Positions 38,936-44,599 of a stretch of DNA of 62,449 nucleotides are shown piece by piece; within the stretch, counting starts at the first letter, position 1, and each line of letters begins with the position of its first letter. Under the pieces are notes generated by a model. It made no database searches. It was not told the origin of the DNA and saw only the letters and a list, made by a program, of their open reading frames with translations. The position numbers and the translations under genes were made by a program. The stretch lies in assembly GCA_900319675.1 (NCBI GenBank), contig ONPK01000001.1, positions 1-62,449 of the forward strand, in the 5' to 3' direction. Source of the DNA: an uncultured Bacillota bacterium (GTDB lineage Bacteria; Bacillota_I; Bacilli_A; Erysipelotrichales; Erysipelotrichaceae).

Positions 38936-38964
38936 TTGTTAAAATGTCATTCTGGACTTATAAT
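38936..38964 (+). promoter_or_regulatory. Candidate SigA promoter placing the TSS at or next to the murI ATG
   Basis: TTGTTA, 17-nt spacer, TATAAT. ATG 38972 begins 7 nt after the -10. No SD. Confidence 0.4.
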
Positions 38965-38971
38965 ACAGATA

Positions 38972-39688
38972 ATGAATATCGGCGTATTTGACTCAGGAAT
39001 CGGCGGACTTACCGTCTTGGAAGAACTAATCAGGGAGCTGCCTCACTGTAACTTCTTCTTTTATGGTGACAATAAGAACAATCCCTATGGCGATAAGAGT
39101 GATGAGGAGCTGATCAGGATAACCTCAGGCGTCGTTGATGAACTGAATAAGAAAGGCTGCAGAATGATCGTCATTGCGTGCGGTACCGCTACGACCAGAT
39201 GCATGGACAGACTGCAGGAACTGTACCCGGACAACATCTTCATCGGCACCTTACCGGCCGTAAAGACCGCCTGTGAAAAGGACTTCAGAAACATCATGGT
39301 AATGGCTACGACGGCAACCATCACCTCAGCCAAACTGAAGGAAATAATCGATGAGAACATCCGTGAGGGACAGAACATCTATCCGGTTGCCTGTCCGGGA
39401 CTGGCTGATGCCATAGAGGCCAACGATGAGAAGGCCATTGGCAGGATCCTGAACAGGATCAGAAGAGAATACAGAGATAAGAACATCGATGCCATTGTAC
39501 TGGGCTGTACGCATTATCCCTTCATCAGGGATGAAATACAGAAGAAATTCCCCAAGGCCGTACTGATGGACAGTGCCAGGGGAGTAGCCAGGGCTGTCAG
39601 TCGCCAGCTCAGAGAGAGCGGTCTGATGGTCGATGAAAAAGAAAAGGGAACCCTTGAAGTAACGTTTACCAGAAAAAAAGCTGCCTAG
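38972..39688 (+). CDS. murI: Glutamate racemase
   Basis: MNIGVFDSGIGGLTV, IACGTAT, LGCTHYPF. The ORF opens at TTG 38936. Confidence 0.9.
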   Translation: MNIGVFDSGIGGLTVLEELIRELPHCNFFFYGDNKNNPYGDKSDEELIRITSGVVDELNKKGCRMIVIACGTATTRCMDRLQELYPDNIFIGTLPAVKTACEKDFRNIMVMATTATITSAKLKEIIDENIREGQNIYPVACPGLADAIEANDEKAIGRILNRIRREYRDKNIDAIVLGCTHYPFIRDEIQKKFPKAVLMDSARGVARAVSRQLRESGLMVDEKEKGTLEVTFTRKKAA

Positions 39689-39700
39689 GCAGCTTTTCGT
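39672..39700. terminator. Bidirectional terminator
   Basis: Palindrome AAGCTGCCTAGGCAGCTT flanked by an A-run and a T-run. Confidence 0.7.
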
Positions 39701-39704
39701 TTAC

Positions 39705-40880
39705 TTAGAAATATAATGAATCAACTTCAGGAATGTTCTTGTCCAGACACTCTCTGGCCTTGTCGATCAATGGCTTGCCATCTTCATAGCCGTATCTCTT
39801 GATCGTTCTTCTTAAGATGCGGGTAAAGCCGACTATTGAGGCCTTCTTGATGATCTCCTGAATTTCTTCCTCACTGCGTCCTTCCAGATACTTGTGCATG
39901 AACTTGTTGAAGAACAGTACGCTGTCATCCCATTCCAGTCCCAGGAAAGACTTGGCAACGCTGTGGTCAGCGCTGTTGAAGCCGATGTAGGCATTGAATA
40001 CGGCTGCCAGTTCGAAGATCGGATGTCCTTCACACAGGGTGTCCATGTCGATGAGCAGAACTTCGCCATTCTGCATCATGACATTCTTGAGGTGATAGTC
40101 CCCGTGCAGCATGTGATGGGTTTCCGGGATGTCATTCATCATCTTATTCAGTTTTTTCCATTCATCTAACGGCAGGTGATCCTTGAGGAAGTCTACCCAG
40201 TCAACAGCTACGGCCTTCATGGATGGCATTTCGCCTTCCTTTACCTCGGTAGCGTGGATCTTCTTGATTAGTTCAACGTCCATGTCTACGATCTCATCCA
40301 TGGTGTATCTACCGTTGATGAGCAGTTTGGCAAATGAATCGGCATTGAGCAGTTCAAATACGGAACCGAAGTTCTCTCCTACCTTTACGACATCGTAAGG
40401 AATGGCAGTCGGGATGCCAAGAATGAGAGCCTTTCTGGCCATCTCACGTTCTCTCTTGATGTCATCCAGAGAGCTGTACTTGTTATAGACCTTGACGATG
40501 GTATCGGCATCATAGCGGTATACCGTACCGTTGGCTCCCTGTCCGATGACTTCACAGCCGTCAACTGAGAACTTGCGGTAGGCCTTTTCAATGGTCATCA
40601 TTTCCGTGAAACCGGTCATTTCCAGGATCTCGTATACTTCGCTTCTGACGTTGGTTACCTTGAATTCGGAATAGTCCTTCTTAAGCCTGAGAATGATTCT
40701 TAATCCGGCACTGGAAATGTAGTTAAGATCTTCTGCATCCAGAATCAGTTCATTGAACTGCTGGTTTTCCAGAGCGTCTCTTATTTCCTTTTCGGTGTCA
40801 GGTGCGTTTGAAGAATCAACATTGCCGCTGACGGAAACAGTCATTACTCCTTCTTTTAATTCAGCTTTTACGTTACTCAT
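39705..40880 (-). CDS. STAS domain fused to an APH/choline-kinase-like phosphotransferase domain
   Basis: N-terminus: ..LILDAEDLNYISSAGLRIIL..VYEILEMTGF (STAS). C-terminus: GQGANGTVY, VKVY, HGDYHLKNV, LIDMD (kinase-like). Confidence 0.75.
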   Translation of the reverse strand: MSNVKAELKEGVMTVSVSGNVDSSNAPDTEKEIRDALENQQFNELILDAEDLNYISSAGLRIILRLKKDYSEFKVTNVRSEVYEILEMTGFTEMMTIEKAYRKFSVDGCEVIGQGANGTVYRYDADTIVKVYNKYSSLDDIKREREMARKALILGIPTAIPYDVVKVGENFGSVFELLNADSFAKLLINGRYTMDEIVDMDVELIKKIHATEVKEGEMPSMKAVAVDWVDFLKDHLPLDEWKKLNKMMNDIPETHHMLHGDYHLKNVMMQNGEVLLIDMDTLCEGHPIFELAAVFNAYIGFNSADHSVAKSFLGLEWDDSVLFFNKFMHKYLEGRSEEEIQEIIKKASIVGFTRILRRTIKRYGYEDGKPLIDKARECLDKNIPEVDSLYF

Positions 40881-41451
40881 GCTTTATTCCTCCAAATATC
40901 AGGTTGAGATAGTATTTGTATTCGTGCCAGGCATTTGACTCATGCAGATCCCTGGTCAGTTCGAGAACACTGTTGTAGTACCAGTACTGTTCAGCCGGGT
41001 CAGACTCATTGAACTTCTTCCAGAGGTCGTCTCCTTCGTGAACATAGTCACGGAAACAGGCTCTGATGTTGGACAGCTTGTCAGCCAGCCACAGTTTCTT
41101 GACGTCAATGTCATTCATTTCAGCCATGCGCTGCAGGGATTCCTGCTTTCTGATCTTCCAGGTCTGATCGGAAGGCAGGTCCTTTCTCTTGTTTTCGGTT
41201 TCAGATTCCACCAGCTTGGCTATCTTTTCCGAGAAGTTAGCCCTGATGTCTTCCATTGTCACGTCGGTATCTTCCACAGTGTCATGCAGCAGGGCTGCGG
41301 AGAGTACTTCGTCATCATCACTTAAGGTAGCTACGATGGCGCACACCTCGATAGGGTGCAGGATGTATGGTATGGTAGTCCATTTCCTTTTCTGACCTCT
41401 GTGAGCATCGATGGCAAACTGCAGGGCCTTGTCAAAATACTTTTCTTTCAT
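40873..41451 (-). CDS. Small RelA/SpoT-type HD hydrolase (small alarmone hydrolase-like)
   Basis: AHRGQKRK..IPYILHPIEV..AALLHDTVEDT, 192 aa, no synthetase domain. Confidence 0.8.
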   Translation of the reverse strand: MKEKYFDKALQFAIDAHRGQKRKWTTIPYILHPIEVCAIVATLSDDDEVLSAALLHDTVEDTDVTMEDIRANFSEKIAKLVESETENKRKDLPSDQTWKIRKQESLQRMAEMNDIDVKKLWLADKLSNIRACFRDYVHEGDDLWKKFNESDPAEQYWYYNSVLELTRDLHESNAWHEYKYYLNLIFGGIKHE

Positions 41452-41452
41452 C

Positions 41453-43309
41453 TTACTTCCCCAGTTTCTTGATTACAGTCAGGACGTTCTGACCGTTCTC
41501 ATATACATAATTAAGCTTGTCCATGGTCTTTCTGACTAAGAAGAGACCGAGTCCGCCGATCTTTCTCTGTTCCAGAGGCGCATTGACATCAGGATCTGCC
41601 TGTTCAAGCGGATTGAACGGGACTCCTGAATCTCTGAATGTCATGGCTATTTCCTCTTCGTTTACTTCCATTTCCACGCTTATGTCACCGTTCTTGCCGT
41701 CTCTGTAGGCAAACTTTGTGACATTGCTCATCAGCTCATCGATGACGACATCTATCTGAGTCTGGATCTTCTGCGGGATGTTGCTCTTCTGCAGTCTGTC
41801 ATTAACGAACTCCGTGACCTTTTCAATGCTGTCAACGACAGCAGGCAGGGTTATCTTCTGCACTTCACTGCCCTTGTATCTTAAAGCCAGCATCGTCAGA
41901 TCGTCAAACTGTTCGTTGCCTTTTTCAAAATCGTGGATGTCCTTTTCAATGTTGTCACAGAATTCTTTCATATCGCAGTTGTAATTCCCTCTGATCACAT
42001 TCAGCAGTCTTTCCGTACCGTACAGTTCGTTGGTGACGTTTTCTGCTTCGGTAACACCGTCAGTATACAGATATATGATGTCGCCCTTTTCGAGCTTTAT
42101 TTCAAAGTCAGGATATTCTATGTTCTCCATGCCGCCCAGAATGAAGCAGGGCTTGCAAGTGAGAACTTCAGGTTCACCGTTTCTGACGATGACTGGAGGG
42201 CAGTGTCCGGCATTTGCATAGGTTATCTTGCCGGTGTTGAGATCAATGATTCCCATCCATGCCGTGACGAACAGTCCGGTCTTGTTGTTGTCGCACAGAG
42301 TATTGTTTACGGCGCGGAATATTTCCGAAGGCTTCAGTCCGCGTTTCGCGTGGCTCTTCATCAGGGTCTTGGCAACGGCCATGAACAGTGAAGCTGAAAT
42401 GCTCTTGCCGGAAACGTCGGCCATAACGAATGCCAGATGACTGTTGTCGACGAGGGCAAAGTCGTAATAGTCACCGCCTACCTCTCTGGCGGGTTTCATG
42501 ATGGCGTAAAGATCAAATTCGGTACGGTCAGGGAAGGCCGGGAACTCATCCGGAATCATGCCTTTCTGGATGTCTCTGGCCAGAGTAAGTTCTGACTCGA
42601 TCCTTGAGGTCTTCTGCGTGATGGCTGCCTGTTCCAGTACCATTGCCCGTCCTCTTTCAGCGATGTTAACGCTGATTACGGCTATCAGGATGTAGGTAAG
42701 CAGTTTCGGGAGGTAGGAATACAGCAGGGTATTCCTCATTAACATTCCCTCATCGAGGCCTATTGCCCTGAAACTGTTGCCAAGGAATCGGCTTATGACG
42801 GTAATTACCGTGTCCTGAGGGAGAGTAACGACGTTCAGATCTATTACTCCAGCTCTGACGCTGCCGATCGTTGACAGAGTAAACAGTATTACCGTCAGAA
42901 ATGCGATGGTCTTGGTCAGGGAACGTGAGAAGTAACGGCTGCTCAGAAGAACCGGTATCGCCATCAGCAGGGGAACCTTATATGACAGGAATACGTCTGC
43001 ACTGGCGCAGGCTAAGGTCAGTGATGCCAGGAGCACAAGCTTCAGCCACCATGTCTCCTGCTTGAAGTAGTGACTGAGAATGTACGGTATTGACAGTTCT
43101 ACGATGCCGACCCATACTGCCATGTTGATCAGTGTTGAAGACATCGGGAAGATGTCCAGCACATGCAGCAACCATGTGGTCAGAAGCAAGGCAATCCCCA
43201 ATCCTATTACGTGAGTTACAAGCTTGTTTGCCTGAACCTCACTGTGCCAGAATACCTCATCAGTTTTCCTGAACATCCGTTTTATTTCATTTAAGATGCT
43301 CTTTAACAT
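41453..43309 (-). CDS. Multi-pass membrane PP2C/SpoIIE phosphatase fused to an RsbW/SpoIIAB-like GHKL Ser kinase domain
   Basis: About 230-aa hydrophobic N-terminus. PP2C (ARDIQKGMIP, REVGGDYYDF, YTDGVTEA). C-terminus (ELMSNVTKFAY, GGLGLFLVRK). Confidence 0.78.
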   Translation of the reverse strand: MLKSILNEIKRMFRKTDEVFWHSEVQANKLVTHVIGLGIALLLTTWLLHVLDIFPMSSTLINMAVWVGIVELSIPYILSHYFKQETWWLKLVLLASLTLACASADVFLSYKVPLLMAIPVLLSSRYFSRSLTKTIAFLTVILFTLSTIGSVRAGVIDLNVVTLPQDTVITVISRFLGNSFRAIGLDEGMLMRNTLLYSYLPKLLTYILIAVISVNIAERGRAMVLEQAAITQKTSRIESELTLARDIQKGMIPDEFPAFPDRTEFDLYAIMKPAREVGGDYYDFALVDNSHLAFVMADVSGKSISASLFMAVAKTLMKSHAKRGLKPSEIFRAVNNTLCDNNKTGLFVTAWMGIIDLNTGKITYANAGHCPPVIVRNGEPEVLTCKPCFILGGMENIEYPDFEIKLEKGDIIYLYTDGVTEAENVTNELYGTERLLNVIRGNYNCDMKEFCDNIEKDIHDFEKGNEQFDDLTMLALRYKGSEVQKITLPAVVDSIEKVTEFVNDRLQKSNIPQKIQTQIDVVIDELMSNVTKFAYRDGKNGDISVEMEVNEEEIAMTFRDSGVPFNPLEQADPDVNAPLEQRKIGGLGLFLVRKTMDKLNYVYENGQNVLTVIKKLGK

Positions 43310-43317
43310 GAGGCCTC

Positions 43318-43617
43318 CTATTTTATGTTCAGTATGCTGCTGAAACCGGTAATGTCGAATATTTCCATGATGTACTCATTGACATTGGAGACAACAAGAT
43401 TGCCGCCCTTTTCGCTGACCTTCTTCTGAGTCAGCAGAAAGACACGCAGTCCTGAAGAAGATGTGTATTCAAGCTTGCTCAGATCAAGCTCAATGTCGTC
43501 AGTTGTTTCCAGGGTTTCATTGACTGCTTTTTCCAGTTCGCTGCTGTTGGATGTATCAAGACGTCCCTCAAGGTAAAGGACAGTCTTTCCGTTGATCGTT
43601 TCTTTTTTTATGTCCAT
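43318..43617 (-). CDS. STAS-domain anti-sigma-factor antagonist-like protein
   Basis: 99 aa, LEGRLDTSNS, LEYTSSSGLRVFL, IMEIFDITGF. Confidence 0.85.
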   Translation of the reverse strand: MDIKKETINGKTVLYLEGRLDTSNSSELEKAVNETLETTDDIELDLSKLEYTSSSGLRVFLLTQKKVSEKGGNLVVSNVNEYIMEIFDITGFSSILNIK

Positions 43618-43662
43618 ATTATCCTGCCTTATTTACATAGTATTAATACACTACCATTTTGC

Positions 43663-43690
43663 CACAAAAAAAACGATGTTTCCATCGTTT
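43663..43690 (-). terminator. Rho-independent terminator separating the upstream gene from the STAS operon
   Basis: Minus strand: AAACGATG-GAAA-CATCGTTT followed by TTTTTTTT. Confidence 0.8.
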
Positions 43691-44263: not shown

Positions 44264-44599
44264 ATGCGAGTACTGAACAATAAGAATTCATTGCTGTTCA
44301 ACGGCACAAATCTCATTGTAGACATCTATGAGGAGCTGTTTTCATATCGCTTTGAAGAGATCAACAGGATATCCATTCTCACCACTCAGCAGAGGCTGGT
44401 CAATGAGACGGTATTCCTGGTTTTTGATGTCGTAAACGAAATATATCTCATAGGACTGACACATCCGGATTTTGACAGAGTTCTGTTAAGTGAGCTTCCT
44501 CAGATCATGGATGTTGATCATAACATGGTAATAGAAGCCATGCAGAACAAATCCGATCATCAGTATGTTCTGTATCATAAGCAGGAGGGTAGCAATTAA
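44264..44599 (+). CDS. Hypothetical protein (111 aa)
   Basis: ORF with SD GGTGG, ending 1 nt before the glpA-like start. No recognised motifs. Confidence 0.5.
   Translation: MRVLNNKNSLLFNGTNLIVDIYEELFSYRFEEINRISILTTQQRLVNETVFLVFDVVNEIYLIGLTHPDFDRVLLSELPQIMDVDHNMVIEAMQNKSDHQYVLYHKQEGSN

Follow-up and report, generated by a model that had tools for sequence, protein, structure and literature searches.

A 62,449-nucleotide stretch of DNA from an uncultured member of the Erysipelotrichaceae (Bacillota; GenBank assembly GCA_900319675.1, contig ONPK01000001.1, positions 1 to 62,449; hereafter the window) carries an operon of four closely spaced genes, all on the minus strand at positions 39705-43617 and enclosed by two hairpin terminators, that probably encodes a sigma-independent Ser-phosphorylation module of the partner-switching type with enzymes as its outputs. 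The first two genes encode a free STAS domain and a membrane protein that combines a PP2C phosphatase with an RsbW-like kinase; the last two encode a RelA/SpoT-type hydrolase of the HD_4 family and a second STAS domain fused to a kinase domain of the aminoglycoside phosphotransferase (APH) fold. The catalytic and phospho-acceptor residues are intact, the gene order recurs in relatives, no sigma factor is encoded in cis, and in related loci STAS domains are fused to other enzymes. Any particular wiring of the components within this general scheme is much less certain.

Operon layout and domain composition

The features of the operon are listed below, with E values from Pfam searches (ORF, open reading frame).

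43671..43690, minus strand: terminator-like site, a hairpin with a U-run, at the end of the upstream Sm_multidrug_ex gene, delimiting the operon on its 5' side
43618..43670, minus strand: intergenic; short leader and putative promoter region
43617-43318, minus strand: gene 1, ORF of 99 amino acids; free single-domain STAS protein (domain at 43318..43617; STAS, residues 3-98, 1.7e-17)
43309-41453, minus strand: gene 2, ORF of 618 amino acids
42605..43309, minus strand: gene 2, residues 1-235, N-terminal multi-pass membrane domain without a Pfam family
41876..42445, minus strand: gene 2, residues 289-478, PP2C/SpoIIE Ser phosphatase domain (SpoIIE, 8.5e-53)
41468..41845, minus strand: gene 2, residues 489-614, RsbW/SpoIIAB-like GHKL Ser kinase domain (HATPase_c_2, 5.3e-22)
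41451-40873, minus strand: gene 3, ORF of 192 amino acids; single-domain HD_4 RelA/SpoT-type hydrolase (domain at 40873..41451; HD_4, residues 9-146, 5.3e-23)
40880-39705, minus strand: gene 4, ORF of 391 amino acids
40584..40871, minus strand: gene 4, residues 4-99, STAS domain (STAS, 7.7e-16)
39708..40568, minus strand: gene 4, residues 105-391, APH/choline-kinase-fold domain (APH, residues 110-300, 9.2e-11)
39676..39697, both strands: bidirectional palindromic terminator, serving the operon on the minus strand and murI, which converges on it, on the plus strand

A first-pass annotation of this DNA had read it as four packed minus-strand genes between two terminators. The ORFs fall at the same coordinates, both hairpins are present, and the junctions along the operon are exactly as it gave them, namely, an 8-nt gap, a 1-nt gap, and an 8-nt overlap between genes 3 and 4, which makes translational coupling of these two genes probable. 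Its domain calls, a single-domain STAS protein, a multi-pass membrane protein with PP2C/SpoIIE and GHKL domains, a RelA/SpoT-type HD hydrolase, and a STAS domain fused to an APH-like kinase, all hold in Pfam and NCBIfam searches. The proposal that every part of an RsbU/V/W-type switch is present also stands, with the STAS serines, the boxes of the GHKL kinase, and the metal-binding motifs of the phosphatase all intact. The NCBIfam equivalog models score far below their cutoffs throughout; the operon proteins are therefore of the right kinds and orthologs of no named system.

The STAS-APH protein (gene 4)

The predicted phospho-acceptor of gene 4 is Ser57 (codon 40710-40712) in the loop YISSAGLR, which a gapless alignment places on Ser58 of SpoIIAA. 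This residue is invariant in two alignments, of 63 and of 88 homologs. In the kinase domain, residues K130, H259-G260-D261, N266, D278, and D280 are invariant in the 63 homologs, whose mean column identity is 75%. The nearest named family is TIGR02172, of which gene 4 is not a member (98.4 bits against a cutoff of 228.2). With scores of 17.5 against 325 for the APH(6) model and 16.2 against 205 for APH(3'), gene 4 is, by sequence, not an identifiable antibiotic kinase.

The AlphaFold2 model of the protein (pLDDT 93, pTM 0.79) has as its Foldseek neighbors APH(2''), MTR kinase, the capreomycin kinase Cph, the macrolide kinase MPH, FN3K, and choline kinase, at 12-17% identity. The best 50 matches are all small-molecule kinases, and the modeled fold suggests that gene 4 is one as well. 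Two routes to its substrate were tried and abandoned: the PDB search gave only a marginal match to hygromycin kinase, and the Foldseek matches were generic small-molecule kinases, and no substrate could be assigned by either. The protein as a whole is acidic; toward the C terminus, however, it contains a conserved basic helix (39789-39845, residues 346-364) with K346, R354, R357, R358, K361, and R362, which may be compatible with an anionic substrate or may represent a partner site.

The same data bear on a quite unlikely reading of gene 4 as a self-contained STAS kinase, with the APH domain acting as a protein kinase on its own STAS domain, on the free STAS, or on other proteins. Hanks-type kinases can phosphorylate STAS proteins, as PknD of Mycobacterium tuberculosis reportedly does, a weak match to the YihE/SrkA-type protein kinase model is seen, and several loci encode HD_4, STAS-APH, and STAS with the serine conserved and no GHKL kinase nearby. 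However, the best family matches are APH, choline kinase, and TIGR02172, all of the top structural matches are small-molecule kinases, and in most loci a dedicated GHKL Ser kinase is encoded right beside the gene.

One homolog, protein P0005, is identical to the window protein over its C-terminal ~90 residues (from about residue 300) and ~60-70% identical over the rest; it comes from a 1.7-kb contig and is likely an assembly chimera.

Gene 1 and two classes of STAS domains

In gene 1, alignment to Ser58 of SpoIIAA predicts Ser54 (codon 43456-43458) as the phospho-acceptor, in the loop YTSSSGLR. The only NCBIfam model that the STAS domains pass is TIGR00377, an anti-sigma-antagonist model of superfamily level (73 bits for gene 1 and 65 bits for gene 4; cutoff, 53.45); both miss the SpoIIAA equivalog cutoff of 114.75 (52 and 48 bits, respectively).

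The serine that matches Ser58 of SpoIIAA is kept in 62 of 62 free STAS homologs and, counting fused forms as well, in 156 of 156 STAS domains (62 free, 88 on APH, 1 on HD_4, and 5 on HAD domains). Free and fused forms alike share the loop Y-x-S-S-[AS]-G-L-R, most often YISSAGLR, and this common loop argues for a single common kinase/phosphatase. Members of the same class are 52-55% identical, whereas free and APH-fused domains share 36% identity, even in the same locus, and the nearest neighbor of each domain is always of its own class. By this comparison, the free and APH-fused STAS domains are two old, distinct paralog classes.

The membrane phosphatase-kinase (gene 2)

According to hydropathy, the N-terminal domain of gene 2 contains about six hydrophobic helices within residues 25-218 and is presumed to be the signal input. 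It is kept only in the near relatives at loci L001, L008, L009, L013, and L021 (L numbers designate loci of relatives); in other lineages, 5TMR-LYT or HAMP stands in place of this transmembrane (TM) domain. No Response_reg match to a REC input domain was found by Pfam, and the sole RssB-like NCBIfam match covers the PP2C part.

The metal-binding motifs of the phosphatase (GGDYYD, DVSGK, TDG, and DD) are kept across 57 homologs, and the N-box and G-box positions of the GHKL domain are kept across 79. The SpoIIE equivalog model gives 49.6 bits against a cutoff of 490.8. For the kinase, the RsbW model gives 47.3 bits (1.4e-12; cutoff, 145) and the SpoIIAB model gives 31 bits (2e-7; cutoff, 135). 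PP2C and HATPase_c_2 are on one polypeptide in gene 2, and the same fusion is found in most relatives.

Spread and conserved gene order

The STAS-APH architecture (~393 amino acids) has at least 7,998 matching clusters (7,998 of the 8,000 scored candidates), and both domains are present in all 120 gene 4 matches listed; the few named proteins carry the label "anti-sigma factor antagonist." In a scan of one genome per species, 517 genomes, mostly of gut and rumen Bacillota, carry a relative of gene 4. The closest, at 96% identity, is in an Erysipelotrichaceae metagenome-assembled genome from sheep ileum, presumably that of the same organism or of a near relative. Other carriers include Solobacterium, Bulleidia, Oscillospiraceae, Acutalibacteraceae, Lachnospiraceae, Ruminococcus, Christensenellales, and Peptococcaceae and, outside Bacillota, members of Coriobacteriia (Atopobiaceae and Collinsella tanakaei). 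Searches of plasmids and phages found no STAS-APH fusion.

For a census of synteny, ORFs were called in the best 80 of the 517 genome loci and searched with profiles from the domains of the window. The component counts rest on 68 species-level loci with a visible upstream side:

HATPase_c_2 kinase in the STAS-APH cluster: 56 of 68 loci (82%)
Free STAS in the STAS-APH cluster: 44 of 68 loci (65%)
PP2C in the STAS-APH cluster: 41 of 68 loci (60%)
HD_4 in the STAS-APH cluster: 39 of 68 loci (57%)

The exact quartet of the window is the commonest combination (19 of 68 loci). The order of kinase, HD_4 (where present), and STAS-APH is nearly invariant, with free STAS at either end, and the kinase is either free-standing (~135 amino acids) or fused to PP2C. 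Synteny of the quartet across Bacillota genomes, on which the first-pass annotation had let its reading depend, is thus kept across families and even in Coriobacteriia.

With gene 2 as the anchor, homologs with the full TM-PP2C-GHKL architecture, at ~40% identity, are found in four different contexts. In L094, the homolog (40% identity) heads the same quartet; in L093, it lies in a series of a DHH phosphoesterase, the phosphatase-kinase, a free STAS, and a gene without an assigned function; in L092, it is near a MatE-HATPase_c_2 fusion; and in L095, it stands beside a metallophosphoesterase/5'-nucleotidase-STAS fusion, a PAS-nucleotide cyclase, and cyclic nucleotide monophosphate (cNMP)-binding proteins.

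Chance juxtaposition of an RsbV/RsbW/RsbU-like set with two unrelated metabolic genes is hardly credible in view of these data. The dispensability of PP2C and of HD_4 in many loci would fit it, but the order is kept in Erysipelotrichaceae, Oscillospiraceae, Lachnospiraceae, Acutalibacteraceae, Christensenellales, and Coriobacteriia, although the flanking genes there are unrelated; searches anchored independently on gene 4, gene 3, and gene 2 each recover the association; and stop and start codons overlap. The census effectively refutes this explanation.

A second HATPase_c_2 domain, fused to a MatE (MATE transporter-like) domain, is encoded at L042:6751-8523, L092:6971-8722, and L094:2057-3802. 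ORFs of this type (~577-590 amino acids) are also found in L048, L074, and L082 and recur beside the clusters; they may be alternative membrane sensor-kinases.

The small alarmone hydrolase-type protein (gene 3)

The best PDB matches of gene 3 are Listeria monocytogenes Lmo0812 (4yf1, 6.6e-26), 7qoe, and 7qoc, which have been assigned to the MixSpo/RelH family of small alarmone hydrolases (SAHs) (PMC10434055). The ~190-residue HD_4 domain has the hydrolase motifs HP, LHD..ED, and ADK, kept across 46 homologs, and gene 3 is, on this evidence, a putative SAH of the MixSpo/RelH type. No RelA/SpoT synthetase domain is found by Pfam in the operon or among the 25 most frequent flank families.

Four loci with HD_4 homologs (~50% identity) were picked on long contigs, independently of gene 4. 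In 4 of 4, HD_4 is directly upstream of STAS-APH; the SAH subfamily of gene 3 therefore appears dedicated to the kinase, and HD_4 followed by STAS-APH is, as judged from gene order, the tightest pair of the module.

This strict pairing, together with an 8-nt overlap in the HD_4-then-kinase order that resembles antitoxin-toxin pairs, is also what might be seen in a toxin-antidote growth switch. By analogy, the kinase would phosphorylate an essential nucleotide or RNA end, HD_4 would reverse the reaction, and the partner-switch parts would gate it; SAHs have been described as antidotes of toxic alarmone synthetases (PMC7229694, PMC9765508). We consider this improbable. The operon has native G+C content and housekeeping neighbors, with no PADLOC match and no plasmid or phage copies; the kinase, with its 75% mean column identity, is unlike fast-evolving toxins; and 43% of loci have the kinase without HD_4, which would be lethal for a toxin. 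A defense or toxin-antitoxin system was accordingly rejected, the PADLOC, plasmid, phage, and G+C content tests all being negative.

Other STAS-tethered enzymes

Fusions of STAS domains with other enzymes are found in several related loci. L015:6099-6992 encodes a 297-residue STAS-HD_4 fusion between a 5TMR-LYT-PP2C-HATPase_c_2 gene and STAS-APH; with class-specific profiles, its STAS domain falls in the free class (121.6 against 74.2 bits). STAS-HAD (Cof-type) fusions lie in the STAS-APH clusters of several Erysipelotrichaceae, Solobacterium, and Atopobiaceae genomes. Pfam shows Hydrolase_3 (1.6e-50) for L025:3757-4839, and L027:4801-5925, L056:3875-5008, L063:3191-4285, and L078 (a 382-residue STAS ORF) are assigned from size and the STAS match. 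These STAS domains are assigned to the free class more weakly.

At L095:2928-4973, directly upstream of the gene 2 homolog, a protein of 681 residues has the architecture Metallophos/5'-nucleotidase_C-STAS with a YISSAGLR loop, and its STAS domain is in the free class (119.5 against 58.7 bits). Its neighbors at L095:371-2899 encode a PAS-adenylate/guanylate cyclase and two cNMP-binding proteins, so that, by its gene content, this locus looks like a partner-switch-like module attached to cyclic-nucleotide metabolism.

The occurrence of free-class STAS domains on HD_4, 5'-nucleotidase, and HAD fusions, in a few cases, is a Rosetta-stone hint that the free STAS of gene 1 might partner phosphohydrolases such as gene 3, the other class belonging to the kinase. 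The phospho-loop being the same in the STAS-HD_4, STAS-HAD, and 5'-nucleotidase-STAS fusions, phosphoryl-transfer enzymes under STAS control are the most likely outputs. These fusions, along with the HD_4-STAS-APH pairing, lend support to the earlier suggestion that the hydrolase and/or the STAS-tethered kinase are the outputs of the operon.

Absence of a sigma factor in cis

In the textbook view, alternative sigma factors of Gram-positive bacteria are controlled by partner switching. The first-pass annotation had reported none in the operon or its flanks, murI and a small exporter, and profile searches agree: the flanks match TIGR00067 (1.4e-50) and Sm_multidrug_ex, and neither they nor the operon has a sigma match. 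A locally built sigma profile, which is a weak test, also finds none anywhere in the window. In the loci of relatives, no Sigma70 family is among the 25 most frequent Pfam families of 68 upstream or intervening genes, nor among those of 67 downstream genes; the flanking genes vary from locus to locus and include those for SDF transporters, flavodoxins, aconitase, and TetR.

Of the 80 genome loci, 4 have an ORF that matches the sigma profile no farther than 7.5 kb away, for the most part on the opposite strand; by a rough estimate, this is about the background rate. Only in L082 is such a gene, an ECF (extracytoplasmic function)-like one, next to a free STAS, which it immediately precedes. A cognate sigma factor is thus not consistently encoded beside orthologous copies, and its displacement in the window was rejected as a general explanation, none being recurrent in the 135 flanking genes or the sigma-profile scans.

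A distal sigma factor is also unlikely to be sequestered by the gene 2 GHKL domain, with the free STAS as the antagonist and HD_4 and STAS-APH as co-expressed passengers or side branches. Regulators with fused PP2C and GHKL domains that act on a distal sigma factor do exist (CrsR of Shewanella sequesters RpoS), and both the RsbW and SpoIIAB matches of the gene 2 kinase and the ECF-like gene of L082 would fit such an arrangement. However, the two models score far below their equivalog cutoffs (47 against 145 and 31 against 135), no sigma factor recurs in the 135 flanking genes, the gene that comes after the kinase in about 82% of loci is STAS-APH, and the STAS-enzyme fusions would be left unexplained.

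Proposed mechanism

In the sigma-independent scheme that we favor, the ~6-TM domain of gene 2 would sense a membrane or envelope signal, and its PP2C and RsbW-type kinase domains would set the phosphorylation state of Ser54 in gene 1 and Ser57 in gene 4. The protein-protein contacts, the direction of regulation, and both substrates given here are what we infer. The STAS domain of gene 4 might be a built-in on/off or sequestration handle of the APH-fold kinase; this is proposed by analogy with the Anabaena STAS-glycosyltransferase All4160 and its regulators HenR and Alr3423. The free STAS could compete for the kinase domain, as in a true partner switch, or, alternatively, it could regulate the gene 3 hydrolase in trans, as hinted by the fusions elsewhere. 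Genes 3 and 4 would form a dedicated, translationally coupled pair. Their most likely target is one shared anionic small molecule or pathway, of a nucleotide or alarmone-like kind, on which the two might have opposite effects.

A more specific version, which we offer tentatively and regard as doubtful, is that an undescribed phosphorylated nucleotide-like signal is made by the APH-fold kinase and broken down by the RelH-type hydrolase, or that the two reversibly phosphorylate a nucleotide or RNA end, with the membrane sensor tipping the balance via the two STAS classes, one per enzyme.

Several observations weigh against the scheme. The fold does not give the substrate of the APH-like domain, which is 12-17% identical to every solved kinase. 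PP2C is absent from 40% and HD_4 from 43% of loci; neither is obligatory, and the conserved core is therefore smaller than the quartet. In 12 of 68 loci, the cluster has no GHKL kinase and yet the serine is kept, as it also is in 7 loci with STAS-APH alone, and 3 of the 4 HD_4-anchored loci lack a nearby GHKL kinase; the STAS handle can thus function with a kinase from another locus or with no kinase. Loci that lack HD_4 retain the free STAS, as does L015, in which HD_4 carries a STAS domain itself; this weakens the idea of the free STAS as a regulator of HD_4. The GHKL domain could have as its partner a sigma factor from another part of the genome.

Relation to known systems

The RsbU/RsbV/RsbW-SigB and SpoIIE/SpoIIAA/SpoIIAB-SigF modules of Bacillus subtilis share the STAS Ser, the GHKL Ser kinase, and the PP2C domain with the operon. 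In contrast to them, the operon lacks a sigma factor in cis, as do the loci of relatives; a single membrane-anchored polypeptide serves as both kinase and phosphatase; and a second STAS domain is fused to an enzyme. In Pseudomonas, HsbR/HsbA is a dual kinase/phosphatase regulator with a STAS output. Like SypE of Vibrio fischeri, HsbR is soluble and has a REC input, whereas gene 2 has the ~6-TM input and no REC; the STAS outputs SypA and HsbA are free proteins with an unknown target or a protein target, not enzyme fusions. Sigma-less partner switches already described include SypE/SypA, BtrUVW, RbaVW, and HmpUVW; SypE/SypA resembles the operon in having the RsbW-like kinase and PP2C on one protein and a STAS protein with a non-sigma target (PMC8256260).

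The one STAS-enzyme fusion described before is All4160, which resembles gene 4 in its N-terminal STAS domain on an enzyme and its sigma-independent output and is proposed to be switched through Ser phosphorylation by the SpoIIE-like PP2C phosphatase HenR and the RsbW-like kinase Alr3423 (bioRxiv 10.64898/2026.04.08.717354). The likeness rests on architecture and adjacency, and the phospho-regulation of gene 4 is predicted. All4160 is a membrane glycosyltransferase of another phylum, in a cyanobacterial envelope polysaccharide pathway, whereas gene 4 is a soluble APH-fold kinase; that system, whose genes are dispersed, lacks an alarmone-type hydrolase and has no additional free STAS encoded in an operon.

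Gene 3 resembles the MixSpo/RelH SAHs (RelH of Corynebacterium glutamicum, RelH of L. levettii, and Lmo0812) in being a single HD_4 domain of ~190 residues with the hydrolase motifs. The SAHs of PMC9765508 and PMC7229694 are either stand-alone ("orphan") enzymes or the partners of toxic synthetases; compared with these, the gene 3 subfamily goes together with a STAS-kinase gene and regulators of the partner-switch type, with an occasional fusion to STAS. Gene 4 shares with the APH/choline-kinase/MTR-kinase superfamily the fold, the catalytic Lys, HGDxxxxN, and DxD but differs from it in the low identity to solved members (12-17%), the N-terminal STAS domain, and the basic C-terminal helix.

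The stressosome core RsbR/RsbS/RsbT (PMC9237128, PMC6614362) likewise has one GHKL kinase and two STAS classes, one of them with an extra domain. In RsbR, however, the STAS domain is C-terminal to the sensor, whereas in gene 4 it is N-terminal to the catalytic domain; downstream RsbU/SigB is missing, and the operon gives no sign of an icosahedral assembly.

The first-pass annotation had not recognized the architecture as a described system. That stands for the STAS-APH family, of which literature searches found no description, as for an SAH linked to partner switching, a RelH-type hydrolase dedicated to STAS-APH, or a STAS-tethered hydrolase set served by a TM-PP2C-GHKL sensor; it needs qualifying in that sigma-less partner switches and one STAS-enzyme fusion are known, so that the principle has precedents.

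At least 517 gut/rumen species carry such switch parts in association with enzymes, a (p)ppGpp-type hydrolase among them. If the proposed scheme is correct, Ser/Thr phosphorylation would tie the sensing of the envelope directly to the metabolism of alarmones or nucleotides, bypassing transcription, thousands of proteins now labeled only "anti-sigma factor antagonist" would gain a function, and STAS-tethered enzymes (kinase, HD_4, HAD, 5'-nucleotidase, and the cyanobacterial glycosyltransferase) would represent a general regulatory design. The maker/breaker version, if true, would have a Ser-phosphorylation partner switch directly driving a second-messenger cycle in gut anaerobes. The module also names a testable candidate regulator for SAHs.

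Boundaries and neighboring genes

The 5' hairpin has a predicted RNA folding energy of -8.9 kcal/mol (z = -2.94 against shuffled controls). On the minus strand, the 3' terminator is a 10-bp stem followed by UUUUUUU (-13.5 kcal/mol, z = -2.87). The region contains 7 terminator-like sites, against 5.1 +/- 2.6 in shuffles; their number is not above chance, and it is therefore their placement at gene ends that counts. A consensus scan of the leader finds a weak -35/-10-like match, TTAATA-17-GATAAT (43646-43618, 9 of 12 positions), which is not significant alone. Rfam at the gathering threshold gives 0 matches in the whole window (1-62449), with no tRNA, rRNA, riboswitch, or leader, and a cis-regulatory RNA such as a guanosine tetraphosphate (ppGpp) or phosphoribosyl pyrophosphate (PRPP) riboswitch was rejected on this basis. 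The operon is chromosomal, and its G+C content (0.471, against 0.462 for the window) is native. Its flanking genes are as follows.

38936-39688, plus strand: murI (TIGR00067), convergent with the operon
44291-43689, minus strand: Sm_multidrug_ex gene (Pfam), upstream and separated from the operon by the terminator

A Pfam scan of the neighbors of STAS-APH-alone loci found no recurrent partner; it returned GGDEF-EAL, UDP-glucose dehydrogenase, aconitase, and a thiamine transporter. In two such Lachnospiraceae loci (L022:4133-6907 and L050:3631-6402), the divergent neighbor is a GGDEF-EAL protein (cyclic di-GMP turnover) with a periplasmic binding domain, and UDP-glucose dehydrogenase is encoded downstream of STAS-APH in L022 and L058. 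The Lachnospira/Eubacterium loci L026, L030, L031, L037, and L061 have no free STAS and no PP2C; in loci of this group, a 144-residue Peptidase_A24-like membrane protein is encoded directly upstream of HATPase_c_2, HD_4, and STAS-APH (e.g., L026:5549-5983). In many loci of Clostridia (L002-L007, L011, L017, L019, L020, L023, L024, L052, and L060), an SDF (sodium:dicarboxylate symporter) gene is immediately upstream on the same strand; an SDF profile match is also found nearby in L043, L084, and L085.

In the window, a 111-residue ORF without a Pfam match (44264-44599, plus strand) is divergent from the exporter gene and overlaps the start of the next ORF, that of an FAD-dependent dehydrogenase. 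L001 has a 106-residue gene, likewise without a Pfam match, at the equivalent position.

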